Below are positions 2,775 through 60,278 of a stretch of DNA of 64,000 nucleotides, piece by piece. The position numbers were made by a program, and so were the translations under genes. The DNA is taken from IMG/VR virus record IMGVR_UViG_3300047576_000059. One strand, given 5' to 3'. A model generated the notes under the pieces. That model was not told where the DNA came from. It ran no database searches and was given only the letters and a program-made list of their open reading frames with translations. Source of the DNA: an uncultured virus (IMG/VR IMGVR_UViG_3300047576_000059). Lineage: Duplodnaviria; Heunggongvirae; Uroviricota; Caudoviricetes. The first letter of the stretch is position 1. Each line of letters starts with the position of its first letter.

Positions 2775-2789
2775 GGAATCATCAAAGTA

Positions 2790-4148: not shown

Positions 4149-4150
4149 CA

Positions 4151-4156
4151 TAAATA
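4151..4156 (+). promoter_or_regulatory. Late promoter core TAAATA
   Basis: In the intergenic gap before the gene at 4190. Confidence 0.55.
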
Positions 4157-4189
4157 TTCAAGTATTAGACTGGGAATTTATTTTAACTC

Positions 4190-24968: not shown

Positions 24969-25744
24969 GAGGTGATCTCAGCGAGAAGTTCGCCGTTCTT
25001 CTTCAGGTCATCCACCAAATCCGGTTCGGTGATTTTTCTCATGCCAGGGTTCGACGTGCGCTGAATGGTGGACTGCTGACCCTTTAGCGTCCACATCGCG
25101 TCCGCGATCACCCAGAACGAAACGCCTTTGTGATACTTGCCGTAGTAACTGAATTTCGCCTTGAAGGCATCGAGATCGGCGCGCAGCAACGCCGCGCTGA
25201 CCATGGCATAGGCGTATGTCCCGTCCTTGACCGCGATGAGCACCACGCCATAGGACTTCACCTTGTCTGGTTCGGATAGCTCCAGTCCCGCCACGTTATC
25301 GCGCAACGGTACCACGAAACCAACGACTTTTGAACAGCGTCTGACTTGCTCAAGAAATTTAACGCCGTGACCCTCTCCCATCATCTCATTGGTGGCAAAC
25401 CAAACATGGATCATTTCATGGATCAGGAGTCCATCCAGAACCTGCTCGGATTTCTTGAATATTGGCGAAAGATACAAGGTGATGGACTCCGGAACGACAT
25501 CCCAGTTGGCGTATTTGTCGACGCGGCCCAACCGAACCATCATGGGATTTGGCGGCGGCCTGTTCGTCAACCGCTTCTGGAAATAGACCATGCCACCGGC
25601 CCCCTTCATCTTCTTCCAGGAGATCGGGATGTCAGGCAGTATGCCATCGAACAACAGATGGTTGTAATGCGCATACTTGGTCCGAAGGTCGTAGGTATCA
25701 ACGGATTCGCACAACTTCATCCAACGTCTTATATCACGATCCAT
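24965..25744 (-). CDS. SprT-like zinc metalloprotease with N-terminal leader MDRDIRRWMKLCE
   Basis: YNHLLFDG.LP, KMKGAGG, LLIHEMIHVW, HG..F. Confidence 0.82.
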   Translation of the reverse strand: MDRDIRRWMKLCESVDTYDLRTKYAHYNHLLFDGILPDIPISWKKMKGAGGMVYFQKRLTNRPPPNPMMVRLGRVDKYANWDVVPESITLYLSPIFKKSEQVLDGLLIHEMIHVWFATNEMMGEGHGVKFLEQVRRCSKVVGFVVPLRDNVAGLELSEPDKVKSYGVVLIAVKDGTYAYAMVSAALLRADLDAFKAKFSYYGKYHKGVSFWVIADAMWTLKGQQSTIQRTSNPGMRKITEPDLVDDLKKNGELLAEITS

Positions 25745-26306
25745 CATCAACCACATCCTTGTTGCCATCGAACGTGCGCTTCGAAAGATCGATGATCTGG
25801 CGTTTGATGATCTTGATCTGAGACGCGTGGAACGGAACGATGGCGGGAAATTTGCCGATCCCTTCTTCCACCAGCATGCCGTCATAAGGCGTCTCGTGGT
25901 CAGTCCGCGTGAAATAACGGTACAACCAGTCCGCGTCCACGAACGACACGTACTGTCCGGCTGCAAGCTCGGCCAGCGATGGTTTGCCATATTTCGCGCG
26001 CAACCTGTTCATGTACGGAACAAATTGAGTGTTGTAGAAGTTGCGGGCCTCGGGGTCGTTCTTGGTGTCGAACATGTGCCTGATGTCCAGTTCGACCGTG
26101 AGCAGGTAGTTACGCATCTTCTTGGGTTTGTCGATTAACGAAATGGGCGTTTTCCCGCCACTGTAGACTTCCGCATATGCCTTGTCCTGGGTGAAGTAAT
26201 GCGGCGAGACGAAAGCCTGTGAAAATTGCTCGATCCGCGAGCCTGTGCCGTGATACGCGATGATCTTCGCCTCGCACAACATCATCCATTCCCTCAATCG
26301 GTTCAT
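25734..26306 (-). CDS. ADP-ribosyltransferase-fold protein with leader MNRLREWMMLCE
   Basis: AYHGT...YFT.DKAYAEVY...YDG...F...QIK pattern of polyvalent-protein ART domains. Confidence 0.65.
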   Translation of the reverse strand: MNRLREWMMLCEAKIIAYHGTGSRIEQFSQAFVSPHYFTQDKAYAEVYSGGKTPISLIDKPKKMRNYLLTVELDIRHMFDTKNDPEARNFYNTQFVPYMNRLRAKYGKPSLAELAAGQYVSFVDADWLYRYFTRTDHETPYDGMLVEEGIGKFPAIVPFHASQIKIIKRQIIDLSKRTFDGNKDVVDDGS

Positions 26307-41400: not shown

Positions 41401-44400
41401 CAACCTGCTTCGCGCCCCAGGTGTCAGGAGTCGATGAGACGTAGCCACTGTTGTATCGGGCCGGATCATAATCTGTCCGGAAGTCGATGTCTCGCTCGGA
41501 AATCCCGGCGATCAGACCACTGATCGGATCGATCACGTCGACCACATTTACCAAAGGCGAATGAGCGATGATCTGTTGATTGGTGATGGTCACGTTCTCG
41601 GCGTAGATGCAGGTATCGGATATCGTTGTCGTATCCACTCGTAAGGGTTGATTTCTGATAGCGGTCCATGTATCTCCGTTCCATTGCAGAACCGCCCATT
41701 GACCATTCGAATAGTCATCGATCCATGCCATGTCGCCAATGTTGAACAGATAGGTCACGGCGTTCAGCGCCGCGACGGTCGGGAAACGTACCTCGCGAAG
41801 TATCCGCACGAATGGCGCGAGTGTGGGGGGTCGGCGTGAAATCATAACCCATCGTTCCAGGTACATTCACCTCGACGTAATTCAGCAAGATATTGACCGA
41901 GGTTATCGTGTTCACGCCCTGAAGATCGGCAGTTGACAGGCTGGTGCCATCGACCACCAACAGCGCGCCAATATCGGTTTCCGTCATATCGATGGGCAGT
42001 TGAAAGAAAATCCGACTGACATTGGGATCGATGGTCGAGTCCTCGTTTTCGGTTTCCACCATGAGAATCAGATTTGGTTGAATTTGGCCATCAGTCACGC
42101 CGGTCTCATAACTTTCCAGCACCGTGTAGGTGCCGTCTGCCCGTTCATAAATCCAGGTCAGGGTTCCAGCGAGAAACGCCGTCTCCCCATTTCCGAACAG
42201 CGTGTTGTAAAGGTCGGGGACCGTACTGATGTAAAACTGTGTGTAGGTCGCGTCGGTGAGCCGCACGGGACCGGCGATCGGATAGGACGAGTTGCCATAG
42301 CTGGTGTTCAACGGGAAGAACGCCGCCGAAGCCGGTTTATCGAACCACAGGGAATCGGACAATGGCATGATGATCCAGTCCAGTGGCGCGGACGGAGTGT
42401 TAACGAAACGAACGATTTGTGGATCATCCCTGGTATCGGTCTGGGTGATCTGAAAGGTGATGAACGGATCAATCGGTGCGCCATAGATACCAAGCAGGAA
42501 CGCCCATTCTTCGAGGAACTGAATGTCACTGTCACTCGACGCGACATTGCTCCGCATCAGTTTCTGGAACACGCCCAGCGCGCCCTTTTGCTGAATCATT
42601 CCCTGATAAAATTCAAATTGTTCCGAGTCAGCTATGACAAGATCATTCATGTATGATCTCTCCTGGAACCCGATGTTATGCCGCGCGTACGTCCACAACG
42701 TTTTTTGCGTTGCTTCCTCGATACCAAACATGTATCTCACGTCGTTGGCGGCTTTATCGAAATTCGAATTCAGGATATTGCCGTTGATGTAAAATCCTGG
42801 CGCGTCGAGACGCCCCGCCCATGCTGTGGAGCAATACGCCCAGAGCTTCAGTCGCTCCTGTCGCATGTTGAAAATTGGCAGATAAATGTCATCATCAAAA
42901 ATCGAAACATTGCTGAATACCAGCGCATGCTCGATGGATGCGATCTCAAGCCTGGTACAGAATATATCGCTGTCCATCGCGGTGACGGTGAGTTGACCGT
43001 CCAGCCGGTCGATGATCACGTTCCTTCTGTGGGATCGGGTTTCCGGCGCGATCCAGCAGGCCAAAGAAACCGGTGACGTTGTCCTCGACATTGAGAATCG
43101 TTCCAGTCGCCGTGATGAAGGTCAGGCCCTGTTGTCCTGGCGACATCGCGATGAAATTACCGGGTGCCCATTGCGTCTGCGCCCACACCAGGAATTCCCT
43201 GACCGACAGGGACCAGTCGAGGATCGTGCCGGACGCGTTGGTGTTGTTGAACACCCAGCCACGACTCACCAGCCAGCTTTGCCAGCCCAACAGGAAATTG
43301 GCGACATCCTGATAAGTGGTGAATTGCGTGCCATAAGGCACCTGTTGAACCGTGTTGAGATTTCGTCCATAAGTGATGACACTTGGCGCGCGTATCATCG
43401 AGGTCGATAAATCCGGACGCGCCATCCAGAAGTTATTCTCGAATTGCGGCCCACTGGTGTGACTCTTCGTGCACTGATACACCGAGTTCAGATAACTGGC
43501 CAGGATGCTGGTTGGATAATAAGTGTTCGGTCGCCAGGTCACGATGCTCGGCTCCGCTCGCCGTCGCCAGTGAAATCAGACCTTTGGGCCACGTTCGGGT
43601 CAGGTGGATGATCACCGTGAAATACTGATTTCGCGCGTCATAGCCAATCGCCCGCCAGCCACTACCCGTCCACTCTAGGATGACGCCGCTGTAGGACTGC
43701 TCGACATCACTGCTCAGGCGACGTATACAGCACGACGTTCACGTCTTCTGCTGGCAGCAGACCGAAATTATCCGCCGAGGATTTTGATGTTGTCGGTTGA
43801 TACGAATGTCAGCCATCTGATGGACCAGTCGCACGTCGAGCCCGCGTATCGCCGTTGCCGAATCCCGATCGAAGTGACACCACGGTGGACAACAGATAAT
43901 CAGCCATCCATTGCTGCACGCCGGTCACCACGGCGGTACTGCCACTTGGGCAACGTCTCGCCATGCACGTATTGCTGAACTGTTCAGTGGACGCTGCCAG
44001 CAGTGGGAATCTCAACCCATTGCGTGCCCACGTAGCCGATGTTCAGACTGTCCCAGCACTCTTCCATGAAACGCGCTGGTTTCATCAGGAACGACGCCAA
44101 TGGCCACGGCGTAGCGGTACGATGGCGTGTTGGTCCAGATGATATTCCACCGGACCAAGATCACCCACCTGCCATGGCCGTGCTCGCGACCGAAAGTGGC
44201 AGATGAGATGATTGACCATGCCAATGTTCGCTACGGATCGAGCAGGACGCCCGAGAATGCCATCGACCGGCAGCAGATTGCAGCAAGCCTGGTCGCGCGT
44301 ACAATGGATCGACACCCATTCTGGCGCACGCCCGCCGCGATGATTGCCGGCCTCCAGGTCGGACCACAGCGAATTGCTTGACGGAGGTGTACGGAGCCGC

Positions 44401-47040
44401 TGCCGTAAGCTGCCGACCCACCAGGTCGGCTGACCGGCGAAGCCCAGCATCTCCCATGGTCCGACTGTGCGGCGCATCCGTGCCGTAGTAAAACTGGTAT
44501 AGATACGCGCGCCAGTTGCCCGGCATGACGTGTTGCCCAGGATGTCGAGGACGCCGTTGAAATTCCAGGTGAAGGAATTGCCCGCGTCATAAGCCGACAT
44601 TGCTGCGATAATCTAAGCCATTGTTCTGCGCCCATAACTCAAACATAGGACCCATGATGGCGGTGAACTCGTAGATACGTGTAACCATTGACCGGCGTGC
44701 CGAACGTGCGATTGCCGATCCACTGATAAATATCGAATACCGGTCGCGCCTCAGTCTGAAACTGCGCCGGCAGATTCTCGATAAATCTGCGTCTCCAACG
44801 CCATCATGCACATCATCCCGCCAGTCATTGAACGCGATGGTGTCAGGCTGCCGTCATGGCCCTGAATCATCGGATCAGGCGTCGCGTAGGTCGAATCCAC
44901 CACGATCGCCAGGAACGACCGCCGGCATCATTCGCCAGCGCGGTTGGCGTCGCCGGTATGAAGTACTGGCCACCCCCAACCGGACTCAGCGCGAACGGAA
45001 AACTTAATGTTCTTGTCGCGAGTGATGTTGGCCAGCGCGGCCGTGACCCAGGTACTCAGGAGAGACGGTCGGATCAACCTGACGACAAGCGTTCCGGCGT
45101 TGTCTGATGACGGTCAGACGGCTCTGATGAATTTTGTTCCTAAATCTGTTGTATTCCTGATCCACGAAGCGAATCGCCTGTGGCATGTCAAAACTCTATG
45201 TCGGACGATACCAACATGGCTTTCAACAACGGCGCGCTGATGCTTGCAGGATGGACGTGCCGACACTCAGATCACGCGCGGTATCGCGATAGTTGTTTAC
45301 CCCCAACGTTTGGCCAACGAAACCAGTCTGATTGGCCAGCAGCGACTGAAAATGATCGATCCATGTGCTCTCTGAGATCAGCGTGACATCATCCGACGAT
45401 GGGTTGCCTTGCAGATTGGACGGAATGTTGTAAAATCCATTGGTCACGCTCTGGGTCGTGGTGCCGTCCGCCAGATACCACAGCGCCGAGAAATTCATCA
45501 CCGAGCCGGTCATTTGTTCGGTACCGACGCTCTGCGAGGTATTGATGCCATAGATGCCGACGCCGCCCGACCCGGTCAGGATAGTGGTGCCGGATGGCAC
45601 GCCCGTTCCGCTGATCGTCTGGCCGCTGAGCATGGTGCCTTCTTGCAATCCTGACACGGTGAGCGAGGTGCCGGTGATCGCCCCGGTGAATTCCGCCGTG
45701 GTTTCGGTCGCGTAATTGGCCATGCTGGTGATCGTGTTCAAACCATACTGATAGGTGACGGCGTACGCGTCGTTCTGGAATACCGGATAGCCGTTGGCGT
45801 CAAACGCAATCAGACGATCCCCCAGCAGAGGGTCCGCATACGTTCCAAGTTCATAACCAAAAATTCTGTTGCCCGCGAAATTACTTCCCGGATAGGTCAA
45901 CGGATCGTTCAGGGCGACGTTATCCAAGTCATAAAGCATGAATAATGGATCGGTGCTCTCCTGCCACACGATGCCCGGATACATCACCAGGTCACGGATG
46001 AATTCTATGATTGGCCGCTCGCCTTTGCGCGAGGTGAAATCCAGTCCCGTCCAGGCGAAGCTACTGACATGAACCCATGAATTATGATTGGACCAACCGT
46101 TCTCCTGGGTGGATGATCGATCAATCGTCACATACTGCGCTTCCAGTCCGCGCACGATGTCGGTATCCAATGTCAGTCTGATGCTCTGACCGACGCCGTC
46201 CACCATCAGCACGTTGGTGCCGCTGTAATCCCACAGGTTGTAATCCCACGGCTGCGCATCCCAGCCACCGATCAGGAACGTCGGATCGATGATTTGAATT
46301 CGCATGCTCGATGTCAGAAACTCGACACCTTCGGAATTGATGTCGGAAATATTGACCGTGGTCTGACCGTTGATGACCGATACCAGATCGGGCGTGCGAC
46401 AAACCAACACCGTGGTGCCATTCGCTGGCGCGGTGGCGCAAATCATGTTGGAGCCAGATACGCTGGCGGAGACCAGGATGTTGTTGACGAAAACCGTTGG
46501 ATTTTCATTCGCCGATGGCACTGAAAGCATGGTGACCGGCAACGCGAAACTCGTGGTCGTGCCATCGCCCGTGTAGTTACTCATTGGCACCGTGAGCACC
46601 AAGGTTGGCAGATCAGCCGACCCTGAATCATCCCCGAACCAGTAATAGTCAGTGTAATTGACGATCATGTCGATGTTGATCGGGGGAGCCCAACTATAGT
46701 ATTCGGTCTCGAACAGACGTTGATGATTGGTGACATTCGCGCCCGATGTCATCAGATAGTTGATCAGATCGGGATAGGTCAGCGTATTGGTGATCACCGA
46801 CGCGGCGTTCGTGCTGATCATTCCGGCTTCGAGTTGATAGAACGCGCGGCTCGCGGTCGGCTCGCCAATGTAGAAATCCGTGATGGGATTGTAGAATGGT
46901 GGCACCCGTCCAATATAGCCACTGATCTGGAGTGTCTCACCGGGTTGAAACACCTCGTCGATGGTCGACGAGAAAAAATTGGCCAAATCCGTGGTTTGAT
47001 TGAACAAAGGAAGTAGGGATACAAAGCGAAATTTCGCCAT
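35431..47040 (-). CDS. Giant baseplate/virion structural protein (about 3,900 aa, possibly more than one gene) fragmented by many apparent indels
   Basis: Starts MAKFRFVSLLP...GYIGR after TAAATA (47069-47074). Colinear fragments at 45223-47040, 42946-43542, 41715-43091, 36590-41866, 35961-36458 and 35431-35880 carry YYSWAP, FYQGMIQQKG, VDIYEW, KPYHVKIRE, GERIEY...LRRGT motifs and WDxxPWD repeats. Confidence 0.7.
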
Positions 47041-47860: not shown

Positions 47861-48610
47861 TCATGCGGCTCGTCCCCATGAACGGTCGATTTCCGCCTGT
47901 CGCTCCACCTTGGCCGAACGTACCTGATTTTTGTCGAACACCACGATGGTCTCCGGCGCGAAGCGATTGCCAAACAACCCACCACCCTTGTCAGCTTTCA
48001 TCCACAATCCATCATGCCCGTGCGCCTTGAGTACCTCGGTGGCCCGTTGGCGAGCGATGGCGGCGACCTTGTTGAGATAGCGAGTGCATTGAAAATTGAG
48101 TTTTTGCGAGGCGATGTCATAATGTTCTGCTGATGCGAATGGTCTGGCGCTTGTTGGGTTTGGTTCACGCTTGCTGATGTAGGAGCGATCCATCAATTTC
48201 TCATAGGCTTGCGCCAGGCGATGATCGGCATCCTTCACTTTCCGAGCGAACTCTTGATAGCTCGCGTCCCGAGAGAGGAACGCATGAAGATCGTCACGAT
48301 CATTCACGTAGAGAGGTTTCTGAATGGACAGGAAGAAGGGCATTTGCGCCTTCTTGGCGTCCCTGCCGCCAACCCCGATATCCTCGGTCGTCCTCTTGAA
48401 GAATATGCCATTCGGCATCTGCTCATCGGAAGCTCGCGCGCCCAGTCGCTCGATGTCGAAGCCATTGGCTTCGATGGATTCGACGTTATCGACGCTGGTT
48501 TGATGATACACGATGATCGGTATGCCTGCGGCGTTGACGACCTTGCTGTTACCAAACCATGATTTAAACTCAGGGTCTTCGATGCCCTCGATGATTTGAT
48601 GATACCGCAT
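47861..48610 (-). CDS. ADP-ribosyltransferase (ART-PolyVal-like) with leader MRYHQIIE
   Basis: FKSWFGNSKVV...G.P.IVYH.T, GIFF, FLSIQKPL, GHDG...ETIVVFDKNQVRS. Confidence 0.78.
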   Translation of the reverse strand: MRYHQIIEGIEDPEFKSWFGNSKVVNAAGIPIIVYHQTSVDNVESIEANGFDIERLGARASDEQMPNGIFFKRTTEDIGVGGRDAKKAQMPFFLSIQKPLYVNDRDDLHAFLSRDASYQEFARKVKDADHRLAQAYEKLMDRSYISKREPNPTSARPFASAEHYDIASQKLNFQCTRYLNKVAAIARQRATEVLKAHGHDGLWMKADKGGGLFGNRFAPETIVVFDKNQVRSAKVERQAEIDRSWGRAA

Positions 48611-48614
48611 CGAC

Positions 48615-48627
48615 TATTTAATAAATA
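48615..48627. promoter_or_regulatory. Back-to-back divergent late promoters TATTTA-A-TAAATA
   Basis: 13-bp palindrome between divergent genes starting at 48610 (-) and 48647 (+). Confidence 0.65.
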
Positions 48628-48646
48628 TCCCATTGGGGGAATTACC

Positions 48647-49444
48647 GTGCGGAACTTTATAGACATCGTGAGTGGACATCTGTTCGAGGCCAGGAAAAAA
48701 TCTCCCGAGGACAAAGGTAGCAAAACCGACACGAAAACCAAACCCACGTACGATCTCTTCCCCGATCTGGAAGCCGGTAGCAAAGGCGTGGCGAAGGCCG
48801 ATGGCCCTGCGGGTGCGCCCGCGTTGCCGGGGAAGAAAACGACCCGTAAGGTGCCTCGGACGGCTGGCGTTGACATGAACGATCCAGGAATGGCCGCTGC
48901 CATGCACGGGATACTGAACCATGGTATGGAAGACGAAATCAGCGATGAGGAAGCCAGGGCGAACAGCAACTGGGGCGACGACGTGGGCGAGCATCCGATC
49001 ATTCCAACCAACGAAAATCTACCAGCGATCATCAGCCGCGAGATTTCTCTTGACGGTGGACGCATCATTCCGGAATGGACTCAGGTGAAGGATTTGCCTG
49101 GCTACATGCTGAACGCCATTCGCGCTGTGGGTCGCGCCCTATTTCGCGAGTACACCAATACCAGGATCGAGGATATTCAGATGCTCGCCACGGTCCCTGG
49201 CATGAATTCGGAGACCGAGGTCAAGGCGATGATGGCGTGGGTCATGAAGAATGGCGTGCCTGGGCAGAAAGCCAAGATAACATTGTATGGTAAGGAGATC
49301 GAGGTCAGTCCGTGGAAGACCGACGATTTCTCGTTTCTTCTGGGTCATGATGACATGGGGTACTATGTCTACGCTTGGGTGCAGAAAAATGGCATAAGAG
49401 TTGGTGGCAACGATGATCACAAGCGGTTAGCATCACCGGAATGA
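48647..49444 (+). CDS. Hypothetical late protein with leader MRNFIDIVSGHLFE
   Basis: GTG start after a GGGGGA SD; PEWTQVKDLPGYM..AIRA.GR..F motif. Confidence 0.7.
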   Translation: MRNFIDIVSGHLFEARKKSPEDKGSKTDTKTKPTYDLFPDLEAGSKGVAKADGPAGAPALPGKKTTRKVPRTAGVDMNDPGMAAAMHGILNHGMEDEISDEEARANSNWGDDVGEHPIIPTNENLPAIISREISLDGGRIIPEWTQVKDLPGYMLNAIRAVGRALFREYTNTRIEDIQMLATVPGMNSETEVKAMMAWVMKNGVPGQKAKITLYGKEIEVSPWKTDDFSFLLGHDDMGYYVYAWVQKNGIRVGGNDDHKRLASPE

Positions 49445-51877
49445 GCATGCGTCGTCATATGATGCTGGTTGAGGCGTTGCGTCTTCAGACCGCTCATCCT
49501 CGAAAACCGCATGGAATTCCTGACGAAGACCTTCTTGCCCAAGCTCGAAGCGATGATTCATGAACCACACAGGGATCATTTGATCCGGCTTCCTGATATG
49601 ATCGCGCAACACATTCCCGCTTTTCGCGCATTTCACGATCTGTGGATAGCGCAACTCAGCAGGCCATTATATGCTCAGCCCACCAACGTGGAAAATCCAA
49701 AGGCCACCGGACCCAACGCCAAATTCAAGGCGCTGCTGCAACAGGTCGCCACCGAGTTTCTGACCTACATCGTCCAACTTGATCCCGATCCCCTGAAAAA
49801 GAACGTGCAGTGGCTGCTCACGTTGATCACACGTAAGCAACAGCCAATGCCGGTCGAAGACCTCATCTACGCAGGGGAATCGCTCACCAAATTCATGCAG
49901 ATGAAAAAAGAGCGACTAATCCCCAAAGAGAAATCCGACATCAACAAGTACAAGTCCCTGTCCGATCTGAACCATGCCCTGCGTGGCGAACAGGATAATC
50001 GACAGGCCGTGGCGACGACCAAAGACGCGGAGATGCGCGCCCAGTCCAACATCATCTATGATGGGCCGGATTACAGCGTCATCTCACCGCAGACCAAGGC
50101 GGCGGCGGGGTATTTTGGTCGGAACACCGAATGGTGCACCGCCTGGGGCTGTCCGGAAGGTCGTCATCCCACCAGAGGCGACAATTATTTCGACCAATAC
50201 AATAAGCAAGGACCGTTGTACATCATCACCGACAAATCCACTGGCGAGCTTTGGCAATTCAGTTTCGCCAGTGGTCAGTTCATGGATGTCGATGATCGAT
50301 CAGTCAACTTGGATGCGTTTTTCAAGCAACACCCGAAGGTCGAACAAGTATTCGAGAACATGGATGGTGAGCCGATAGCCACGATCTCGATGGGCGACGA
50401 TACTCGGGTGTCGGTGCCTGTCTATGCTCTCGGCAAAGGTTTCGTGATTAAAAGCAAAAAAGGACCAAGAGGTGCCATATTGCTGCAAGCGAATGTCGCG
50501 CCTGATGGCAGCCTGATGTCGGACATGACCGGATTCTGGATTCTCAATGCACAGCCGGGCCAGCCGAAAGAAATCGCCAGCCTCATGAACAAGCTTCATA
50601 TCACGGGCGACGAAGACGGAGTGGCGCAACTGGGTCTCTACTATCGCGATGGCAAATGGGGCACGCTGAGCGAGGTCGCCAAGCCATTCCTGCGAGTGGG
50701 TTATCTGGAATGGCGACAGGTGAATACCAAGCAAGGCCGTGAATTGGTGCTGGGCGTTTCACATGATGATATGCTACGCGATGTTGCCGATGATTTCGGT
50801 GAAGGACTACTGACCGGCACGCTGTTCGATGGTGCCATGGGTCTCTATCCCACCGATGCTCTCTCGTCTTACGAGAACAAAGAAGAAAACCGCACTTTTC
50901 GCAGTCGCGTGGACGAGCTTGGAGCATCATTGAGCCGTGCTGTGGCCGATATGTTGTTGAAGGAACCAGACGCGAAGAAATGGGACGATGACTCAAAGAT
51001 CAAATCATCCTCGCTGACCGATGAAGACGCCAAGCGACTGATCCTCGTCAAACCGGGATTTGGTGATCTGGTGTCAGCATACAAAATCCACGGTAACACC
51101 AAAATCGTGAAATCCATGGTCGAGGATTGGTGCGAGGGCATGGACCTGAGCATTGGCAAAGGTATGAACAAGGAGCGGGCACCTTGGATTGGTGATGATC
51201 TGATCATCGAGTGGTTTAAAGATGCTCAGGAACTCGTGGAAGAACTCGGCAATGATACCGCGAAATGGGTCAACAAACTGGTCAATGGGGAAGATAATAT
51301 TGAACATTATGACGTGACCGCCGACCATCATCAGGTCAGCGATTTGGTTGATTCATTGGAACCTGACGTGCTGACCCGACTTGGAGAATTTCTCCAGGCG
51401 GAGCACCCCGACGAAGCGGAAGAGATCGAGGATTACGATCCATCGGATGCTGGTTCGATTATGGATTTGTTCAGAGACACGAATGACAATGATCTGCAAC
51501 AGGCGGCGAATTGGGCGGTGCAGGACGGACTACAAATCGGCGCGGAGAACGAAGCATCGGAAATTTACGCGAAAACTCTGGAAAATAATGACTACGTAGT
51601 GTTCCTCGACGATAAGGGCCAGCCAGCGAACAAGATGACATACGATTCGCCTTGCTGTTTTGTCGTCCCGCTGAAGAAATTCATCGAATATGTCAAATCC
51701 GAAGGCGAGGAACAGGCGGCATACAATCTCAGCGATGGCTGGACCGAAGTATTCGATGATGCGAAAATCGACATCGATCAAGGCCGCTATGGCTTCGATG
51801 GCTATGACGATGATGCGGCGCAGGAAAGGTTCAATGACTCAGTGCATGAGTTCTTACCAGAAGACGCGACGGCATGA
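49441..51877 (+). CDS. Large WCT-motif phage protein, paralog A (apparent indel near 49485 joins the leader MSMRRHMMLVE)
   Basis: DPDP.KK..QWL, EDL, DINKYKSL, YFG.NTEWCT, GPLYII, QFMD, acidic C-terminus; ATGA overlap with the upstream gene at 49441. Confidence 0.75.
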
Positions 51878-53484
51878 CGACACGATCTTTACGTCGCTGG
51901 ATGCTGTTGTGCGAAATCGCCCAGCTTCTCGAATCACGGCTTGACGCGCTCAAAACAAAATACCTGCCGCAGTTGGTGCAGGCACTGAAATGGCTCAAGG
52001 TCCGGAATCTTCCACCAGGAATACCAGACGGCGTGCTGCATTCTGGCGTGGATGACGGGGAGGCATCACCGCTTCATTTCGTCGGTGACACGGCCCAGGA
52101 GCAAACCGCGTCGGCCATCTTCGACATGATCGCCCAGGCTGATCCCGATCCGCAAAAGAAATACACCCAATGGCTGCTCACGCTGACCCTCAAGGGTCAG
52201 ATGCCGCTTGAGGATTTGTACAAGGCGACCGAGTATCTGACCACGTTCATGCGACTAAAGGCTGCCATTCCGGTCGAGCAACGGAATATCATGGCCTACA
52301 AATCGTTGCAAGACCTGTTTGATGTCGTCAAACTCGCGATGGACGATCCAAGCCTGTTACCGGTCTCCAAGGGCGCGGGGAAACGCGACATCAAAGCCGA
52401 GATGATGAAACAGGCCCGCGTCGTGATGGACACACCAGAGTATCTGATCGTGGTGCCGCTCACCCAGGAAGCTTCCTGTTATTTTGGTGTCAACACGCAA
52501 TGGTGCACCGCTTCGACCACGTCCTCCAACTATTTTGATTCATACAACAAAGATGGTCCAATCTACATCATCCTGGAGAAGAAAACCAACACACGTTGGC
52601 AATTTCATTTCAGTAGCGCCCAGTTCATGGACGAGAACGACCGTTCGATAGATGTGACGGATTTCGCCAACAGTCATCCACAAGTCGCGATGGTGCTGGC
52701 CGAGGAAATCGTCAAGGAAAACCCAGACCAATTTTCGAAGCTGGGCGAGGACAAGTTCATCGTGAAAAAATGGACGGACGTGGACGATTGCATCGACGAC
52801 ATCGGTACCACGGATGGCAAGAGCTTTTACAAGTTCTATATCAAGGATGATAACTGGGTATACAGCGCCGATTTCTTTCCGAATTACGATGACGATAACG
52901 CGCGAGACCTGATGGCTTCACTGGAACCGGAATTGCTGACCAAACTGGGTCAATGGTTTTATGACATCCAAAAAAATCACATTGACATCACGGAGATTGT
53001 TGAGAACTACGATCCATCGAGCATCGACGACATCATTGATCTGGACAATGAGGTGGAGGATGAAGATTTCCGTCATGTCGTGCAATCGGCCATCGCGTCG
53101 GGCCTGGAAGCGGGCGCTCAGAACGCGGCTTACAAGGTCTTCGAGACCGCGATGGAACGAAGTGACTATCTGATGTTCAAGACCGAGAAAACACCGGACC
53201 TCCCCGCCATGGCGAGACCCGGCAGATATCAGCACCTCGCGAGTGACACGGAACAATGGACGGGAGAATTCCAGTTTGATACCGAGATCGCGTTCGTCAT
53301 CACCAAGGAGCAACTGGCGCACAGTCTGGATGGCTTCCTGGATAGTGACATCTCGAACATAGCGGAGAGTCTGAACGCGCAGATCGACATGCAGGAACCG
53401 CGTTATGGTTTCGATGAATGGGATCAGGGCGTCTCCAAGGAACGGTTCGCTGATGATATCAGTGAACTCATCGAAAAAGGTTAG
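51874..53484 (+). CDS. WCT-motif phage protein, paralog B, leader MTTRSLRRWMLLCE
   Basis: Same motifs as paralog A but lacks a long central insert. Confidence 0.8.
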   Translation: MTTRSLRRWMLLCEIAQLLESRLDALKTKYLPQLVQALKWLKVRNLPPGIPDGVLHSGVDDGEASPLHFVGDTAQEQTASAIFDMIAQADPDPQKKYTQWLLTLTLKGQMPLEDLYKATEYLTTFMRLKAAIPVEQRNIMAYKSLQDLFDVVKLAMDDPSLLPVSKGAGKRDIKAEMMKQARVVMDTPEYLIVVPLTQEASCYFGVNTQWCTASTTSSNYFDSYNKDGPIYIILEKKTNTRWQFHFSSAQFMDENDRSIDVTDFANSHPQVAMVLAEEIVKENPDQFSKLGEDKFIVKKWTDVDDCIDDIGTTDGKSFYKFYIKDDNWVYSADFFPNYDDDNARDLMASLEPELLTKLGQWFYDIQKNHIDITEIVENYDPSSIDDIIDLDNEVEDEDFRHVVQSAIASGLEAGAQNAAYKVFETAMERSDYLMFKTEKTPDLPAMARPGRYQHLASDTEQWTGEFQFDTEIAFVITKEQLAHSLDGFLDSDISNIAESLNAQIDMQEPRYGFDEWDQGVSKERFADDISELIEKG

Positions 53485-53514
53485 TTCGGTAAGTCATTGA
53501 TTTGACTCTTTATA

Positions 53515-53543
53515 TTGATCTCCGAACGTAACATGTGCTATTT
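53515..53543 (+). promoter_or_regulatory. Candidate sigma70-type promoter for the ncRNA
   Basis: TTGATC-N17-CTATTT just upstream of the structured region. Confidence 0.35.
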
Positions 53544-53549
53544 ATCGTG

Positions 53550-53947
53550 ATGGCTTTTCCCATGTGCCTTGTGACATGTGGTTAGATGGCTCTGGCCACT
53601 CCAGCATTGACCCTGACGCGATCAAACATGCGACTTTTCAATCTGTATCGTAATGGCTATGCCGTCTAACAGATAAACAGGGCCGATGTTATGCGGTCGT
53701 CCAAGTTGACTCAATCGGGGCTACGGAATAACTTGAGACACTTTAAACCTACTCAATGGTGTGGTCAGATCTTCGGATTAGTAAATGCCGTTGGGTAGCG
53801 CTCTGGTCTGGTGCGAAATCTCAGACAGTCTCAAGCGATAGCTCAAGTTGAAAGATTGCTTCCTATCTGTCAGTGATTTCGTTTCGCTGATTCGCCCCCT
53901 CGGTGGGTAGGTAGGAAGACGCATTAAGTCGAAGTACGTCCGATTGA
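53550..53947 (+). ncRNA. Unclassified ~400-nt highly structured RNA
   Basis: No ORF in the track; at least seven helices with G-U pairs favouring the + strand and a cUUCGg tetraloop (53771-53776); details in findings. Confidence 0.65.
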
Positions 53948-53948
53948 C

Positions 53949-55073
53949 TTAAACGAACGAAGTGATGTCCTTGAATCCAACCAGTCCGAGATAATCCTTG
54001 GTGCCAGCGACATAGTCGCCCTTCTCATAAGTCAACAGACCATAGTTGGTAAGGAACGACACCACCGGCTCGAAGGTGCTTGGATCGATGACCACGCCAG
54101 AGGATGTAAGTGGCTGATACAATCCAAGAATAGCCGCCGCGTCCGTCTCATCGCCTTTGTAGCCAATCAGCACGGGTGTGTCAGCCTTGCAATATTGGTC
54201 ACAATAGACGTTGATGCCGTTGAAGGTTCCGGTGAATTTCGTGCCACCGGTCCAGTATGGATCATCTTTCGCCGGGGTGAACCCAACCACTGATCTTAGC
54301 ACCAGCAGCGAGGAGGGACCAACGATGCACCAGTTGCCTGGACCACGCTTGGTTCTCACCGCGATATTCGCCGCCTCTGTCTCGATCATCTGACCGAAGG
54401 CTTTGTACAGGTCATAAACATAATCCGGCTGTCTTATCGTGTGATCGTAAGTGGAGACCGGTGGTTCGGCGAGACCGCGCAGCATGTGCACAAGCTCACA
54501 ATCGTATTCGGCCATGACTTCCTGCGCCAGCGCCGCCATGATCTCGGCCTCGATGTCAACGCCCATTGCCGCCTTCGCGTCCCCAGCGGCTTCGAAGGTC
54601 CATCGCGCGGACAGTTTGCGCACCTTCGCCGTCATCGGTTCTTCTTCGGTCAGAAATTGTGCCCAACCCGCAGGCGTCATCTTGCCGCGCATGATCTGCG
54701 CTTTGCTTTCCATCGTGTTCATCGGCTGCACGCCGATGATGTCGTTGGCGAGCAGGTTTGGGATCACCCGACGCATGACCGGCAGCAGCACCTTATCGAG
54801 GGCGGCGAAATTGCCAGCCGCAGAATATTTCGCGTTCTCCAACGTCATCTGATGGAAATTTTCCAGCATGGTGTCCATCAGGTTCAGCTTGGTTGGATTC
54901 TCCGAGCCATCCTTGTTGTGGGTAAGATCGGAACCTTCCAGCAACGCCTGCTTGGTTCTCGCCCACATGTCTTGTTTGTGCAGGGACGGGATCGGTTTCT
55001 CGGTGTCGGGCTTGGGCTTCTCTGTGCGTAATGTTGTCATTGTGCCAACGATGGATTTTAAAATCGGATGCAT
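53949..55073 (-). CDS. T4 gp23/gp24-family capsid protein paralog (shortened)
   Basis: LPVMRRVIPNLLANDIIGVQPM, RKLSARWTFEAA.DA, DIEAEIMAALAQE, RGPGNW, IGYKG, IDPSTFEPVVSF.T.YG. Confidence 0.88.
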   Translation of the reverse strand: MHPILKSIVGTMTTLRTEKPKPDTEKPIPSLHKQDMWARTKQALLEGSDLTHNKDGSENPTKLNLMDTMLENFHQMTLENAKYSAAGNFAALDKVLLPVMRRVIPNLLANDIIGVQPMNTMESKAQIMRGKMTPAGWAQFLTEEEPMTAKVRKLSARWTFEAAGDAKAAMGVDIEAEIMAALAQEVMAEYDCELVHMLRGLAEPPVSTYDHTIRQPDYVYDLYKAFGQMIETEAANIAVRTKRGPGNWCIVGPSSLLVLRSVVGFTPAKDDPYWTGGTKFTGTFNGINVYCDQYCKADTPVLIGYKGDETDAAAILGLYQPLTSSGVVIDPSTFEPVVSFLTNYGLLTYEKGDYVAGTKDYLGLVGFKDITSFV

Positions 55074-55328
55074 GAAATATCTTTCTGATTAAGTATGTAT
55101 AATTTATGCATAGTAGTCTGAGTTCGCATTGGATGGTATCTTTTTTGATACCATGTATCAAAATCATCCACGTTGCGAGATCGCGAAATCGTGGTATGGT
55201 TATTGCCATGGATACATCATCGTGGCTCGCACAATTATGTGGCTGACCCTCGTGGTGGGGATTGCCTCGCTGTCCGAGATCGGGCGAAGAAGGGCTATGG
55301 ATGAGGTTCGATCCAAGGAAAAATCCCC

Positions 55329-55538
55329 GTGCGTGATGACCGTGTATGGTGTCCTCCAGGCGTGGATGACCCGACCGAACGTGGTGAGATATTGCGCGAA
55401 TGGGAATTGGAGATTCCGCGAAAAACACTGTGGACAAGGTTCAAGGAGAATTTCATCGAAGGGCTGGCCAGAAGTCTTGGTTGGGGCATCGGCATCGTGA
55501 TTATCGTGCTGTTCTATCGCTGTTTCTTGGCCCAGTGA
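55329..55538 (+). CDS. Small membrane protein
   Basis: 69 aa with a C-terminal hydrophobic helix; GTGA overlap with the next ORF. Confidence 0.45.
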   Translation: MRDDRVWCPPGVDDPTERGEILREWELEIPRKTLWTRFKENFIEGLARSLGWGIGIVIIVLFYRCFLAQ

Positions 55539-55831
55539 CTCCCGCAGCCCGCGCCTCATTCAAGGTCACGGAATTAGGGGTTGACAACGACTCTGATGAG
55601 GTGAGCCTCTTCTTCACCGACGTTAAGTATGGCGATGGAAAGGTCTTGCGGGCGAAGGTTCCAAAGCGTCAATTTCAGGAAATGCTGTCGCAGATGGCTC
55701 CCGACCGACCGGCGACCATCATGTTTCATCCCGATGCCAATTCTACCCTCGGTGACATGGAATTGATGATCAGCGCCGAGGATGTCAAAACGATGAAAGA
55801 GACCCTGTCGCCACTGCTGCGCGATTCTTAG
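55535..55831 (+). CDS. Hypothetical protein
   Basis: GTG start coupled to the upstream stop; MTPAARASFKV... Confidence 0.55.
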   Translation: MTPAARASFKVTELGVDNDSDEVSLFFTDVKYGDGKVLRAKVPKRQFQEMLSQMAPDRPATIMFHPDANSTLGDMELMISAEDVKTMKETLSPLLRDS

Positions 55832-56031: not shown

Positions 56032-59000
56032 TTACGGCAGCCTCGCGCCGCCTTTTCTGGTCACCTGATTGCGAACGCCTGGCGTGCCCACGGACAGATA
56101 GCCATCGTTCTTCTTATTTCTGAGGGTCTGGATATGACGGAACATCGCCAGGGTGATCTTGAGCGCGTCGCCCTTTCGGCGCATGGCCTCGGCCTTGGCC
56201 AATCGTTCGGCGACCGGATTGGCCTTATACTTGAACCAATAACTGTTTTCCGAGTTGAACCAGCGCGCGAAAATCTTACTGAAGTGATAATCGACCTGAC
56301 CTTTGTCTCTTCCATTTTGGTTGATCTTGCCATAGGTATCGTAGGTCACTTTCACGACATGCGGCGTAGGCATGCGGAAATGATCCAGGCTATCTGGCTT
56401 ATGATCGGCCACCCAATCCTTCATCTCGTCATCCATGCTGTCATCGATGAGAGTACTAACGTCCTTGCTACCGCTTGATAACAGGACCTGCATTACTTCG
56501 TTGCTGATCTTGTGGCCATCGCGTCTGATTTCCCCCACCATCTCCAACAGCTTATCGTATTTGTGCTCAGCGAGTTCGACCAGCCATTCATCGATCTTGT
56601 AGCTTCCGATTGTCTTGAAAAATCCCTTCGGCAACATCTGACCATTAGAACTTTCCCAGCTATGCCGATGGCCAATGACACCGTTGAGGAAGATGAGCGC
56701 CATTTTCTCTGCGGAGAAATTGTCGAAGTATGTCTTGATCACCTCTGGCTTATCGTGACCAATCGTGACCAACGTTTTGATGCCAAAATCATTCAGGTGT
56801 TGGCCGAGCAAGGCTGCTCTCTGATCATCTTCGGTGTCGGTGACCAGTTCATCCAACTGACCGTTGCGGATGATTTTATTGAAGATGGCCTCTTTGCCAG
56901 CGGCTTGCGCGGCGGCTTCGTATTTCTTGTACTGGTCCGACTCAGGATCAGTTCGTGACTGGAATACCGGATTATTCCATTTGCTTCTCTTGTCCACCAG
57001 ACCATAGCCTCTGATGTCACGGTTCATCAGGGCCTGAATGAGCCTCAGATCATCGTCGCTGAACAGCCGCTCGATGATCGGCTGTGGAATATTTGGCACC
57101 TCGACCAGCAGATCGGGAAATTCCTCGTACACGAAACTCAACAGTTCAACCGAGGGATTCTTGGTTTTCTTGAGCACGTAGCGGGTGGCCTCCTCGTTGT
57201 TGGCCTCCTTGAGCATGTTCATCAGCGTGTCTTTACCGGGCTTGAACCGTTTGAACGCCTTGACGGTGAAATCATTCTTGTAGCCTGATGGGACCCGCTT
57301 GCTCGCCCAGACATTGCGCAGCGCCTCGAACACTTTCTCCTTGTCCAGCTTGCCCTTGAGGTCGCCCCAGAGATAAGTTTCCCTATGATGATACTTGGTC
57401 GGTATGGCGGATGCCGCCATGACATCGGGAACAAGCTCTGGCGCGTTGTTGACGAGCAAACTGAAATAATCACCGCGATAAGTATTGCGGATGAGACCGA
57501 CGATGTCATTGACCCGCAGCTTGTGAAGGTTCCTGACGAATTCCTCGCTGCCGCGTGGCCCTTGATCATTGTTCCTGTACGGATTGTAATCACTCCTGTC
57601 AGTCGAACGCGCCCGCATGGCATCTTTATCGATATGACTGACCGCGACTTCGAACGCGCGACTCTTGCCGAGTTTGGTGAAGGCTTGTTGCGCGGCCACG
57701 AATTTCGGGCTCGTCGGATCAAGGTGCGCGACATCGGATGTATTGGGTTCGCGGATCACGGCTTCGACGTTCTTGAGAAAACGTTCAATCGCTTCACGCG
57801 CGTGTGCATGCTTGGCTTCGATCTGTTCCTTATCGGTCAGCTTCCTGTTGTAGTGGATTTGCTTTTTTGGCACATGAGTGGCAGTTGAGTTCTTCTTGTC
57901 CGTCACCATGCGGTAGTCTTTTTTGATCGTCGGAATGGCTTCTGGTCTCAGCGTTTCCATCACCAATGGAAAAATCTCTGGAGCGATGACCTGTACGGGT
58001 TTTAGACGGTCGCCGAAGTGTCGATTACCATCGCGGCCTGTGTTATCCTTGTCAAACAAATATTTCTGAAACTCGAAGCTTGGATTCGGTTCTTCCGCCA
58101 GGTAGAGATTGGTGAATTCATCATTATTGACCGATTCAAGCGCTCGTTCCGTGGTTGGTTGCGACAACGACGCCGGTACTTCTTTTCTGATCGCGAGGAT
58201 GAGAAACATCTTCAGCGTGACATTGCTGATCGTGTCGAGCAACTCATCCACGGTGCCCGCGTCCGGTTTGGCGTAGCCGATGATGAAATCGGTGATCTTC
58301 TTGGTCTTCTCCTTGTCGGCGTAGTAGCTGCGCCCCAGACCCTCGCAGGCGCTGATCAGGTCTTCGCCGGACATCTTGTAGCCCAGCTTGATCAGGTGCC
58401 GCATGGCTTCTTCCGGCAACCAATAGAACGCTTCGCGGATCATTTGTTGGTTGAGATCACCGAAGTCGCCATTCTGCCCGACGAACAGGAAGAACGGACC
58501 CGCCGCGCGTTGGTTTTCCGAATTGAGTTCGCGCTCGATGGCTTCCTCGCCGCCTTGCAACAGCATGTCGCTATAGATGTTCGGCATGGCCTGAGACAGC
58601 GCCGTGACGAACGCCGCGTCCTTGGGTTGCTGATGACGACCGGAGCCACTATTTGTTTCGAGGTGCTGGATGATGGCGGCGCAGACCGAGGCATCCGGTT
58701 TGGTAATGATCAACAACGGTTTATAGAGATTGGCGGCTGTTTCTGGCATGGCCTGGAACGCCTTCACCAATTGCGCGCTGGTGAATTTGTTGCCATAGTG
58801 TTCAACAACCGGGACCGCGTGTTCTGGCATGTTGGCGAACACATATTCGATCACCTTGTCGGACAATCGGGAAGTGCCGTAGAGCGAGGTGAACAATCCA
58901 AGCGACATATCCGCCTGGGCTTCTTCCTCATGCCAGGAGCGTCTTTGTCCGGTCCCTTCATAATTCTGAAGGAGCTTCTCGCCTTCCGCGTTGTCCGGAT

Positions 59001-59793
59001 CGAGGATCATGTCCTTGAACTGATCCTGCGTCATGGTGACGGACTCGTCACCATTCCAGATACGCAGCAACCCGACATTGCGATGATCGCCTTCGACCGT
59101 CACGCCGTAGTCCGCGAAGAACTCCCTCAGCATCGGCCAGTAGCGGCGCACGGGAGCGCGGTTGCCCTTCCCCTTGATCTGCGCCGTCTTTTTGTCCGAA
59201 TTCATCTGGATGGTCGCGTGAGGCTCGTTGTTGGCGTCACGCAGGCTGAAGATATGGCCTTGACCGTTGCCCACGAAACTCGCGTAGGAGCCGCCGCCCA
59301 CGCAGTGACCCATCCCCGCGCCTTCCTTGGCGAGGGCGTTCTGTCCCAACAGATCGACCATCCGGTAGCCACCTGGAAATTCCATGAGCGTTTTGACCTG
59401 TTTGGGATCGTCCGGCAGCTTCTTCGCCTGGGCGTTCATTTGCTTGACCCAGAGGTCAGCCGCCTGCACGACGTTCTGGACGCTCATGCGCTCAAGCCGG
59501 GGTATCTCCGGCTTGCTGTCGAAGAAGTCCATGATGTGTTCTAATTCGCCCTCGGTTCTGGGATTGAGGCGAATGTCGTATAAATCCTGGAACGAAAAGG
59601 CTTTCTTCTGCTTCTCGGTCGCGTTGACCGGCAGATAGGGCAGCTTGTGGAGATTTTCCTGTGATTTGGTCAGCCAGTTGGCGTAGTTCGTGCGCAGCCA
59701 TTGCTTCGCCGCGTCATTCGGCGCGCGAGCGATCCACGGGGCTAATACGACATCGACGGGCGAATGGAGCACGACTTCTAACAGACTAACCAT
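56032..59793 (-). CDS. Large protein with an N-terminal PcfJ-like domain and helical repeats; leader MVSLLE
   Basis: ALAKEGAGMGHCVGG.SY...IFSLRD..NEPHATI...QIKGKGN PcfJ-like motif; TAAATA at 59819-59824 (minus) favours the ATG at 59793. Confidence 0.78.
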   Translation of the reverse strand: MVSLLEVVLHSPVDVVLAPWIARAPNDAAKQWLRTNYANWLTKSQENLHKLPYLPVNATEKQKKAFSFQDLYDIRLNPRTEGELEHIMDFFDSKPEIPRLERMSVQNVVQAADLWVKQMNAQAKKLPDDPKQVKTLMEFPGGYRMVDLLGQNALAKEGAGMGHCVGGGSYASFVGNGQGHIFSLRDANNEPHATIQMNSDKKTAQIKGKGNRAPVRRYWPMLREFFADYGVTVEGDHRNVGLLRIWNGDESVTMTQDQFKDMILDPDNAEGEKLLQNYEGTGQRRSWHEEEAQADMSLGLFTSLYGTSRLSDKVIEYVFANMPEHAVPVVEHYGNKFTSAQLVKAFQAMPETAANLYKPLLIITKPDASVCAAIIQHLETNSGSGRHQQPKDAAFVTALSQAMPNIYSDMLLQGGEEAIERELNSENQRAAGPFFLFVGQNGDFGDLNQQMIREAFYWLPEEAMRHLIKLGYKMSGEDLISACEGLGRSYYADKEKTKKITDFIIGYAKPDAGTVDELLDTISNVTLKMFLILAIRKEVPASLSQPTTERALESVNNDEFTNLYLAEEPNPSFEFQKYLFDKDNTGRDGNRHFGDRLKPVQVIAPEIFPLVMETLRPEAIPTIKKDYRMVTDKKNSTATHVPKKQIHYNRKLTDKEQIEAKHAHAREAIERFLKNVEAVIREPNTSDVAHLDPTSPKFVAAQQAFTKLGKSRAFEVAVSHIDKDAMRARSTDRSDYNPYRNNDQGPRGSEEFVRNLHKLRVNDIVGLIRNTYRGDYFSLLVNNAPELVPDVMAASAIPTKYHHRETYLWGDLKGKLDKEKVFEALRNVWASKRVPSGYKNDFTVKAFKRFKPGKDTLMNMLKEANNEEATRYVLKKTKNPSVELLSFVYEEFPDLLVEVPNIPQPIIERLFSDDDLRLIQALMNRDIRGYGLVDKRSKWNNPVFQSRTDPESDQYKKYEAAAQAAGKEAIFNKIIRNGQLDELVTDTEDDQRAALLGQHLNDFGIKTLVTIGHDKPEVIKTYFDNFSAEKMALIFLNGVIGHRHSWESSNGQMLPKGFFKTIGSYKIDEWLVELAEHKYDKLLEMVGEIRRDGHKISNEVMQVLLSSGSKDVSTLIDDSMDDEMKDWVADHKPDSLDHFRMPTPHVVKVTYDTYGKINQNGRDKGQVDYHFSKIFARWFNSENSYWFKYKANPVAERLAKAEAMRRKGDALKITLAMFRHIQTLRNKKNDGYLSVGTPGVRNQVTRKGGARLP

Positions 59794-59831
59794 ATGGGAA
59801 TCCAAGAGTGTTTTCCCATATTTATGGAAAG

Positions 59832-60278
59832 TCAATCAGGATCGGTGCTTTCCAATCGCTCCGGTTTCGGAAACGCCGTCTCCATCCATTCGTCGCGAAA
59901 CTTGATGGCTTCCTCACGCGTGGCGAACGGCGTCACGCCATCGGGGAGGAACCGGTGGTCACTCGGATCATGCTCGAAATTGTAGGAGATTTTGATTTTG
60001 TCGGGATAACGTTTGTCCATCCAGATGGAGATGGTCTCAACGATCACTTTGACCGGTTCGCGTCCATAGGTCATCCACCAGACCCAGACCTCGGAGCCAA
60101 CCGGAAACGGAACGTGGATGCGCATCGGAGCCGGAGTTTCGTCCAGAATTTCGGCCAACTGTTCATGATGAACCGAAAACTCGGCATCATCCCCGATGTC
60201 GGTGCTGACCCGCCAATAATCGCCGTCCTGTCTCAGGAGACGCACTGGCATTAGCGCCGTGTCATTGGGTTTGAACAT
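59832..60278 (-). CDS. Hypothetical protein
   Basis: 148 aa in a minus-strand operon; F.TREEA motif. Confidence 0.6.
   Translation of the reverse strand: MFKPNDTALMPVRLLRQDGDYWRVSTDIGDDAEFSVHHEQLAEILDETPAPMRIHVPFPVGSEVWVWWMTYGREPVKVIVETISIWMDKRYPDKIKISYNFEHDPSDHRFLPDGVTPFATREEAIKFRDEWMETAFPKPERLESTDPD

Follow-up and report, generated by a model that had tools for sequence, protein, structure and literature searches.

A probable folded RNA of about 360 nucleotides in an intergenic gap of a jumbo-type phage genome from peat

The DNA studied here, referred to below as the window, is the whole 64,000-nucleotide (nt) stretch of IMG/VR record IMGVR_UViG_3300047576_000059, an uncultured member of the Caudoviricetes, and it comes from the genome of a jumbo-type peat phage. 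Where a run of + strand genes meets a convergent gene for a Gp23-like major-capsid-family protein (hereafter the capsid paralog) lies a 464-nt gap (53485–53948) free of open reading frames (ORFs), the longest among the gaps in the window on a crude gene map. It is the probable source of a folded RNA, about 360 nt long, that had not been catalogued before. An earlier inspection of the letters alone, called here the sequence-only reading, had listed a set of helices within it, and a check against the sequence found all of them at the positions given. The parts of the locus are set out below, one per line, with lengths in amino acids (aa) and base pairs (bp); G001 is a 66.5-kilobase (kb) IMG/VR contig, the one full relative obtained.

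51874–53484, + strand: upstream gene, 536 aa, which closes the + strand gene run; phrog_17056 at 3.1e-14.
53485–53580, + strand: spacer 5′ of the RNA, with local hairpins at ~53486–53518 and ~53560–53581 and three copies of the self-complementary CATGTG; 100% identical in G001.
53581–53670, + strand: domain 1, a long irregular hairpin, with closing helix GTTAGATGGC (53581–53590) paired with GCCGTCTAAC (53661–53670), 10 bp including one G-U.
Within 53581–53670, + strand: inner helices of domain 1, UGGCCA/UGGCUA, CAG/CUG and AUUGA/UCAAU, and an apical stem CGCG/UGCG with loop AUCAAACA.
53681–53698, + strand: linker hairpin between the domains, GGCCG(AUGUUAUG)CGGUC, which forms in the window and in G001 and sits inside a 19-nt invariant run (53681–53699).
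53711–53947, + strand: domain 2, multi-branch, with proposed closing helix TCAATCGGG (53711–53719) paired with TCCGATTGA (53939–53947), 9 bp including one G-U.
53732–53835, + strand: P2 sub-domain, in which the 8-bp P2, CTTGAGAC (53732–53739) with GTCTCAAG (53828–53835), closes a three-way junction.
53749–53762 with 53785–53798, + strand: P3 variable arm, CTACTCAATGGTGT with ATGCCGTTGGGTAG, tipped by a C(UUCG)G hairpin at 53768–53779.
53806–53811 with 53820–53826, + strand: P4 invariant hairpin, GTCTG (53806–53810) with CAGAC (53822–53826), loop UGCGAAAU.
53836–53859, + strand: P5 hairpin, GCGAU...AUUGC with an inner UCA/UGA stem; G001 differs by one deleted loop base only.
53859–53918, + strand: P6 three-way junction, the 10-bp P6 CTTCCTATCT (53859–53868) with AGGTAGGAAG (53909–53918), enclosing GTCAGTGA/TCGCTGAT.
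53869–53876 with 53884–53891, and 53894–53898 with 53903–53908, + strand: hairpins P6a and P6b, respectively, carried by P6.
53906–53947, + strand: invariant 3′ block, GGUAGGUAGGAAGACGCAUUAAGUCGAAGUACGUCCGAUUGA, 42 nt, which supplies the 3′ side of both P6 and the closing helix and ends 1 nt short of the capsid stop codon on the opposite strand.
53949–55073, − strand: convergent gene for the Gp23-like major-capsid-family protein, 374 aa; PF07068 at 1.7e-51.

The sequence-only reading saw the mostly G-U non-canonical pairs on the + strand as a pointer to selection on the RNA, and folding beats shuffled sequence on that strand only. Over 53485–53948, the + strand reaches a minimum free energy (MFE) of −150.0 kcal/mol against −131.3 ± 6.6 kcal/mol for 100 dinucleotide shuffles (z-score, z, of −2.83; 0/100 as good), whereas the − strand stands at z −0.17, with 39/100 shuffles as good. 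Restricted to 53581–53947, the + strand gives z −3.08 (1/200 shuffles as good), with an MFE of −123.1 kcal/mol versus −90.2 kcal/mol for the − strand, and its MFE fold contains 17 G-U among 114 pairs. The MFE folds include all the listed helices apart from 53711–53719/53939–53947, which is replaced in whole-RNA folds by a pairing of 53711–53715 with 53847–53851. A further proposal, an inter-domain pseudoknot of 53635–53642 with 53847–53854, is possible but not confirmed: both strands are present and invariant in G001, but we estimate that 8 bp including two G-U would be expected many times by chance in 360 nt. Taken part by part in the window, domain 1 folds at z −3.86 (0/500 shuffles as good), domain 2 at z −2.74 (1/200), the P3 arm at z −5.22 and the P6 domain at z −5.34 (0/500); the corresponding G001 values are −1.84 (31/500), −1.74 (8/200), −0.59 and −3.54 (3/500).

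As a control, nine other window gaps of at least ~200 nt were folded; a comparable + bias appeared only at 55074–55399, and the rest were mostly unremarkable. This 326-nt gap flanks the capsid paralog opposite the RNA and gave z −3.28 on the + strand and −2.11 on the − strand (60 shuffles); a second folding run of its + strand gave −113.1 kcal/mol, z −2.90, with 1/100 shuffles as good. It is identical in G001 and has no meaningful Rfam match, and it may be a structured leader of the + strand gene 55400–55831 or part of the same + strand RNA system. For the 199-nt gap 24766–24964, where folding is moderately better than in shuffles on either strand (z −2.57 and −2.04), a bidirectional terminator region is one possible reading.

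Coding capacity does not account for the stretch. The ORF scan of the gap found none longer than 48 aa, none of its five small ORFs matches PHROGs at E ≤ 1, and the strains differ by 1-nt indels; on these grounds the RNA stretch shows no coding signal and fails as a protein-coding gene or pseudogene.

Comparison with G001 shows how this stretch evolves. From 27766 to 64000 the two genomes are 99.0% identical over 36.2 kb, and the 362 differing columns comprise 272 in 43531–45247, ~56 in the RNA (53597–53905) and ~34 across the remaining ~34 kb. Divergence between the two genomes is concentrated at two hot spots, of which the RNA is one; identity is 88% inside it and 99.9% outside both. Within the RNA, the longest invariant runs measure 47, 42 and 36 nt, and the patches between the long runs are 15% divergent. 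When differences are placed at random, a third-longest run of at least 36 nt arises with P 0.0007 if 45 independent positions are assumed and P 0.024 if these are grouped into 33 events. The longest invariant run of the second hot spot is 34 nt, despite its being five times as long as the RNA.

Several of these changes keep structure and count in favour of a conserved fold. P2 has lost exactly one bp in G001 and in a third strain (runs X14 and X1), with 1 nt missing from each strand at mutually pairing positions (53735–53737 and 53830–53832). The window and G001 share the P6 three-way topology despite an interior made up largely of different sequence; both alleles have an 8-bp P6a, built from different letters and in another register, and P6b carries a C-G to A-U replacement. 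P6 itself shows C-G to U-G and U-G to C-G, one-sided changes that keep pairing on the + strand only and so argue against a − strand reading. Domain 1 keeps its nesting in G001, where the apical stem carries a G-C to C-G flip and an internal loop is enlarged by an insertion. The P3 arm differs in both length and sequence among three strains. In the RNAalifold consensus of the window and G001, 95 of the 104 pairs are unvarying, seven change on one side and stay G-U compatible on the + strand, one changes on both sides and one is removed by a paired deletion. Covariation at this depth is anecdotal, not statistical.

The second hot spot, 43531–45247, differs from G001 by 198 substitutions spread over codon positions as 64/70/62 (no bias) and by 74 indel columns, at ~15% divergence. 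It sits between fragments of phrog_10938 (profile 18–220, 885–946, 1259–1383, 1380–1703 and 1825–2159, spread over 36590–47040) and looks like the decaying or replaced middle of a fragmented giant gene. The region matched nothing in Rfam, gave no folding signal and showed no complementarity to the RNA. The two hot spots may mark places that tolerate imported divergent sequence.

The stretch occurs in runs of peat and permafrost metagenomes from 20 studies, and 6 of the 20 entries are metatranscriptomes. Three of these (X8, X14 and X17) and one DNA run (X1) were compared over 52800–54700. Contigs of X8 cover 53584–53715, 53738–53865 and 53906–54036, those of X14 cover 53664–53881, 53910–54060 and 54126–54324, and that of X17 covers 53970–54215. 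Two of the three metatranscriptome runs, X8 and X14, therefore place contigs on the RNA, while none of the three has a contig on 52800–53583, and the DNA run covers the whole stretch. This distribution is consistent with both the RNA and the 3′ portion of the capsid gene being transcribed. The coverage gaps of the metatranscriptomes at 52800–53583 and 54325–54700 were considered as a signal in their own right and set aside as at most a weak hint, the sample being biased and made of contigs only.

The same contigs place limits on the element. The contigs of X8 include a G001-type allele, and an X14 contig represents a third allele with many P3 indels. A 4.3-kb contig of X1 and a contig of X8 match the window at 100% identity from 53584 as far as 53661 (X1) and 53715 (X8) and are unlike it just upstream, where, by eye, the flank resembles a diverged homologue of the window spacer; another X1 contig departs from the window after 53942. 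Because strain contigs switch at ~53584 and ~53942, the RNA behaves as a sharply bounded module, and the occurrence of part alleles in different combinations with different flanks points to recombination inside the conserved blocks.

The RNA matches no catalogued class. Across all 64 kb, no Rfam 15 model reached its gathering score, and at E ≤ 10 the stretch 53400–54050 returned only two chance matches, a fungal small nucleolar RNA (Afu_294, 14.3 bits, E 4.2) and a microRNA (mir-277, 12.7 bits, E 7.5), both far below thresholds of 43 bits. Since their Rfam models are not matched, the RNA falls outside GOLLD, ROOL, group I and II introns, RNase P, transfer-messenger RNA (tmRNA), HEARO, OLE and the small self-cleaving ribozymes. 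The sequence-only reading had likewise seen no hallmarks of tmRNA, RNase P, group I intron or HEARO, and Rfam 15 and ARAGORN agree, the latter finding no transfer RNA (tRNA) or tmRNA in the window. A search of the rest of the window for antisense or guide targets (blastn-short) gave best matches of 12–16 nt, all at E ≥ 1, and an antisense-guide role appears unlikely because no complementary target was found in these 64 kb.

Taken together, these observations make a functional, structured + strand RNA of some kind fairly likely in our judgement. More tentatively, and at somewhat short of an even chance, we favour a free-standing or processed non-coding RNA gene of ~360 nt on the + strand of this giant peat phage, extending from 53581 or 53584 to 53947. 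Such an RNA would fold into two domains, a 90-nt irregular hairpin and a ~240-nt multi-branch domain with two three-way junctions. Invariant between strains are the junction strands, the loops of P4 and of the domain-1 apex, the P5 hairpin and the 3′ block; the outer arms (P3, P6a, P6b and the interior of domain 1) are replaced or re-registered and may be either free or driven to vary. We envision a folded particle whose invariant loops and junctions may be where a protein partner binds or RNA–RNA contacts are made, with a putative role as scaffold or decoy, and whose arm alleles would be shuffled among related phages via recombination within conserved blocks.

Several results weigh against a free-standing RNA gene. 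The first group concerns the fold. The long-range closing helix is unsettled, as the 53711–53715/53847–53851 pairing wins in the whole-RNA MFE. Folding better than dinucleotide shuffles on one strand only is a property of the window allele that the G001 allele as a whole does not share (z −0.43, 64/200 shuffles as good; z −1.33, 8/100, for the 465-nt version). In G001 the P3 arm is shuffle-like (z −0.59), its proximal stem CUCAAUGG with CCGUUGGG being without a 3′ partner, and the domain-1 AUUGA/UCAAU helix loses one pair to a G>U change. Two-sequence covariation amounts to one pair changed on both sides, and is uninformative, as 252/500 shuffles do as well. Hot-spot status may itself mean low constraint instead of selection, because the other hot spot looks like decaying non-coding DNA.

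The second group concerns expression. The four runs compared are contigs only and give no strand, ends or level, and they were chosen by words from 53300–54100, which biases where coverage falls. Over 53300–54200, a scan of both strands for intrinsic terminators found no site, and neither did a sigma-70 scan, which does not extend to promoters that jumbo phages may have of their own; the promoter TTGATC-N17-CTATTT put forward in the sequence-only reading is among the sequences that fail it. No promoter motif was found by k-mer enrichment.

The third group concerns distribution. IMG/VR scans with the invariant motifs gave G001 and no further homologue, motif scans of GTDB genomes and blastn against INPHARED gave none, and blastn plus nhmmer at 80 jumbo-phage capsid loci gave none either. 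Two loci from an 18-mer scan of JGI metagenomes (L010 and L011) share the 18-mer only and were discarded as chance matches. A structure-aware covariance model built from the single sequence recovered the G001 P6 domain (31.8 bits, E 2.5e-6) by aligning shared UCGUUUC letters, not the re-formed P6a, and was left out of the pair counts; the same model gave a chance match at 13669–13725 (E 0.074). The RNA is known, then, from one phage lineage, represented by the window, G001 and the strain variants of the peat runs, and the suggestion that it stands for a class of phage RNAs is not borne out.

Among other explanations, we consider it unlikely that the structure is a cis-acting 3′ end module, that is, the structured messenger RNA tail of the + strand operon 48596–53484, acting as an exonuclease shield and/or as an insulator against the convergent capsid gene. 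The RNA directly follows the last + strand gene on the same strand, has no separate promoter that we could recognise and occupies exactly the position between convergent genes, and transcription through the region on the + strand would fit the second + biased structured gap at 55074–55399 (z −2.9 to −3.3). A tail of this kind would need neither two three-way junctions nor their invariant loops, which exceed the needs of a stabiliser, and no intrinsic terminator was found. In another strain, moreover, the conserved part begins sharply at 53584 and not at the gene end, and the contigs of the RNA runs, a weak and biased sample, lie on the RNA in 2/3 runs and on 52800–53583 in 0/3.

The absence of any RNA function is, in our view, equally hard to favour, although we keep it under consideration mainly because the second hot spot evolves like non-coding DNA. 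The stretch would then be a tolerated spacer at a recombination hot spot, its helices part chance and part leftovers, and the RNA reads would be read-through from neighbouring genes. That the G001 allele overall folds no better than shuffles (z −0.43) is what such a spacer would show, and the second hot spot, the only other one, has the look of decaying non-coding DNA (64/70/62, 74 indel columns); homologues were found in one lineage alone, and two sequences preclude covariation statistics. A mere spacer is harder to reconcile with good folding on the + strand alone (z −2.8 to −3.1 vs −0.17), with the exact deletion of one P2 bp, with a P6 junction re-formed from different sequence, with long invariant runs between 15%-divergent patches, and with a divergent strain that is 100% identical over 53584–53715 while its upstream sequence is unlike the window.

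It is very improbable that the functional transcript is instead the − strand, as a 3′ untranslated region of the capsid-paralog messenger RNA that starts at the capsid stop (53949) and extends to ~53584. Contigs of the RNA runs do span the capsid stop (53906–54036 in X8, 53910–54060 in X14) and extend over the 3′ portion of the capsid gene, and no terminator follows right after the stop; yet folding of the − strand is at shuffle level (z −0.17) and falls 33 kcal/mol short of the + strand MFE over 53581–53947, 17 of the 114 + strand pairs are G-U and become C-A mismatches on it, and the one-sided P6 changes preserve pairing on the + strand only. Least credible is an ORF-less catalytic or mobile RNA (self-splicing, self-cleaving or selfish) that moves as a bounded module, which would suit the sharp limits (~53584 and ~53942), the unlike flanks in other strains and the multi-junction architecture with invariant junction strands, but which meets no Rfam ribozyme or intron match at E ≤ 10, nothing to splice because the element is intergenic, no terminal inverted repeats or target-site duplication by eye, no reverse transcriptase or homing endonuclease in the window, and an upstream flank that, again by eye, looks like a diverged homologue and not like a new site.

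The spacer 5′ of the RNA (53485–53580) could hold the end of the upstream transcript and/or start signals of the RNA. The motif [A/C]CATGTG[C/G] occurs three times within 51 nt (53531–53581) just 5′ of the RNA, and two of the copies make a local hairpin; across the window CATGTG is not enriched (12 found vs 13 expected).

The 536-aa upstream protein is a paralog of the 802-aa ORF at 49469–51877. Both proteins belong to phrog_17056 and lack Pfam and PDB matches (Pfam at E ≤ 1 for the 536-aa protein), and the Atlas structure model of the 536-aa protein is of low confidence (predicted local distance difference test, pLDDT, 0.53). In an Atlas feature search, 2 of 30 hits were clusters with PcfJ, and the one shown scores 0.91, with PcfJ in 26% of its members; a PcfJ-like nature of this protein and its 802-aa neighbour is a weak lead. 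The nearest named relatives of the capsid paralog, at 33–41% identity, are capsids of jumbo phages of 280–490 kb (Phosso, Atu_ph07, PA5oct and RaK2-like phages). Among its closest proteins, one is 78% identical and lies on a 1.8-kb contig, and the next relative is at 48%. Phosso and PA5oct lack an equivalent gap, as only ~100–120 nt follow their capsid genes. In Erwinia phage Hallingskeid (PQ464590.1), two ORF-free gaps fold with z −5.2/−6.1 (19188–19518) and −3.2/−4.3 (81752–82075) on the two strands; the former is repeated at three places in the record and is partly common to RaK2-like Klebsiella, Salmonella and Escherichia phages.

Among the window proteins, no reverse transcriptase, nuclease or RNA-binding family was found as a partner for the RNA, nor was a homing endonuclease. 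Three consecutive + strand ORFs at 1425–5563 (449, 452 and 457 aa) match neither Pfam nor PHROGs, and their similar size and tandem order suggest that they are paralogs. Further genes of the window encode pieces of the phrog_10938 giant virion protein and the following proteins, one per line.

2–622, − strand: cytidine/dCMP deaminase.
7523–19750, + strand: 4075-aa ORF.
24965–25990, − strand: SprT-like protein.
47861–48610, − strand: ART-PolyVal ADP-ribosyltransferase.
56032–59835, − strand: 1267-aa PcfJ-like protein.

This set resembles conflict modules of the 'polyvalent protein' kind known from phages and conjugative elements. The broadest form of the proposal, which we regard as improbable, is that the RNA belongs to a new class of large phage RNAs in phage–host conflict, with a conserved core of invariant junctions and loops and with surface arms exchanged by recombination among co-circulating strains, in the manner of tail-fibre or anti-defence protein alleles, acting as a decoy or scaffold under diversifying selection among genes for virion-delivered 'polyvalent' effectors.

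Set beside known elements, the peat RNA is most readily likened to large phage RNAs. With GOLLD (RF01998, about 800 nt) and ROOL (RF03087, about 580 nt) it shares being a large, multi-junction, ORF-free phage RNA of orphan function; it differs in having no Rfam match at E ≤ 10, in its smaller size (~360 nt) and in the lack of tRNA genes in the window. A bidirectional intrinsic terminator would share the position between + and − strand genes, but consists of one GC hairpin and a U tract, against 360 nt of nested helices and junctions here and no site in the terminator scan. GOLLD and ROOL are described as present in many phage genomes, often near tRNA genes, and one GOLLD RNA as accumulating in lytic growth of a Lactobacillus prophage while being dispensable for phage production (PMC7567579). 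GOLLD and ROOL are reported to self-assemble into multimers (bioRxiv 10.1101/2024.12.08.627333). For vibriophage ICP1, a ~800-nt non-coding transcript between gp139 and gp140 was the most abundant phage transcript by RNA-seq (PMC7567579). The ICP1 transcript resembles the peat RNA as an orphan non-coding transcript from an ORF-free gap, in a lytic phage without tRNA genes; phage, host and size are different, and the transcript evidence for the peat RNA consists of unstranded metatranscriptome contigs.

Large structured orphan RNAs such as GOLLD, ROOL and the ICP1 transcript are a recurring and unexplained feature of phage genomes, to which the peat RNA, if real, would add a smaller and unrelated family from a soil jumbo phage. 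Should it not be real, what is left is a spacer at a recombination hot spot, of little interest. If it is real, its fold is partly kept while its sequence is replaced, and arms-race diversification of phage RNAs, as with phage proteins, would become testable; peat metagenomes and metatranscriptomes already contain many alleles, which provide material for that question.

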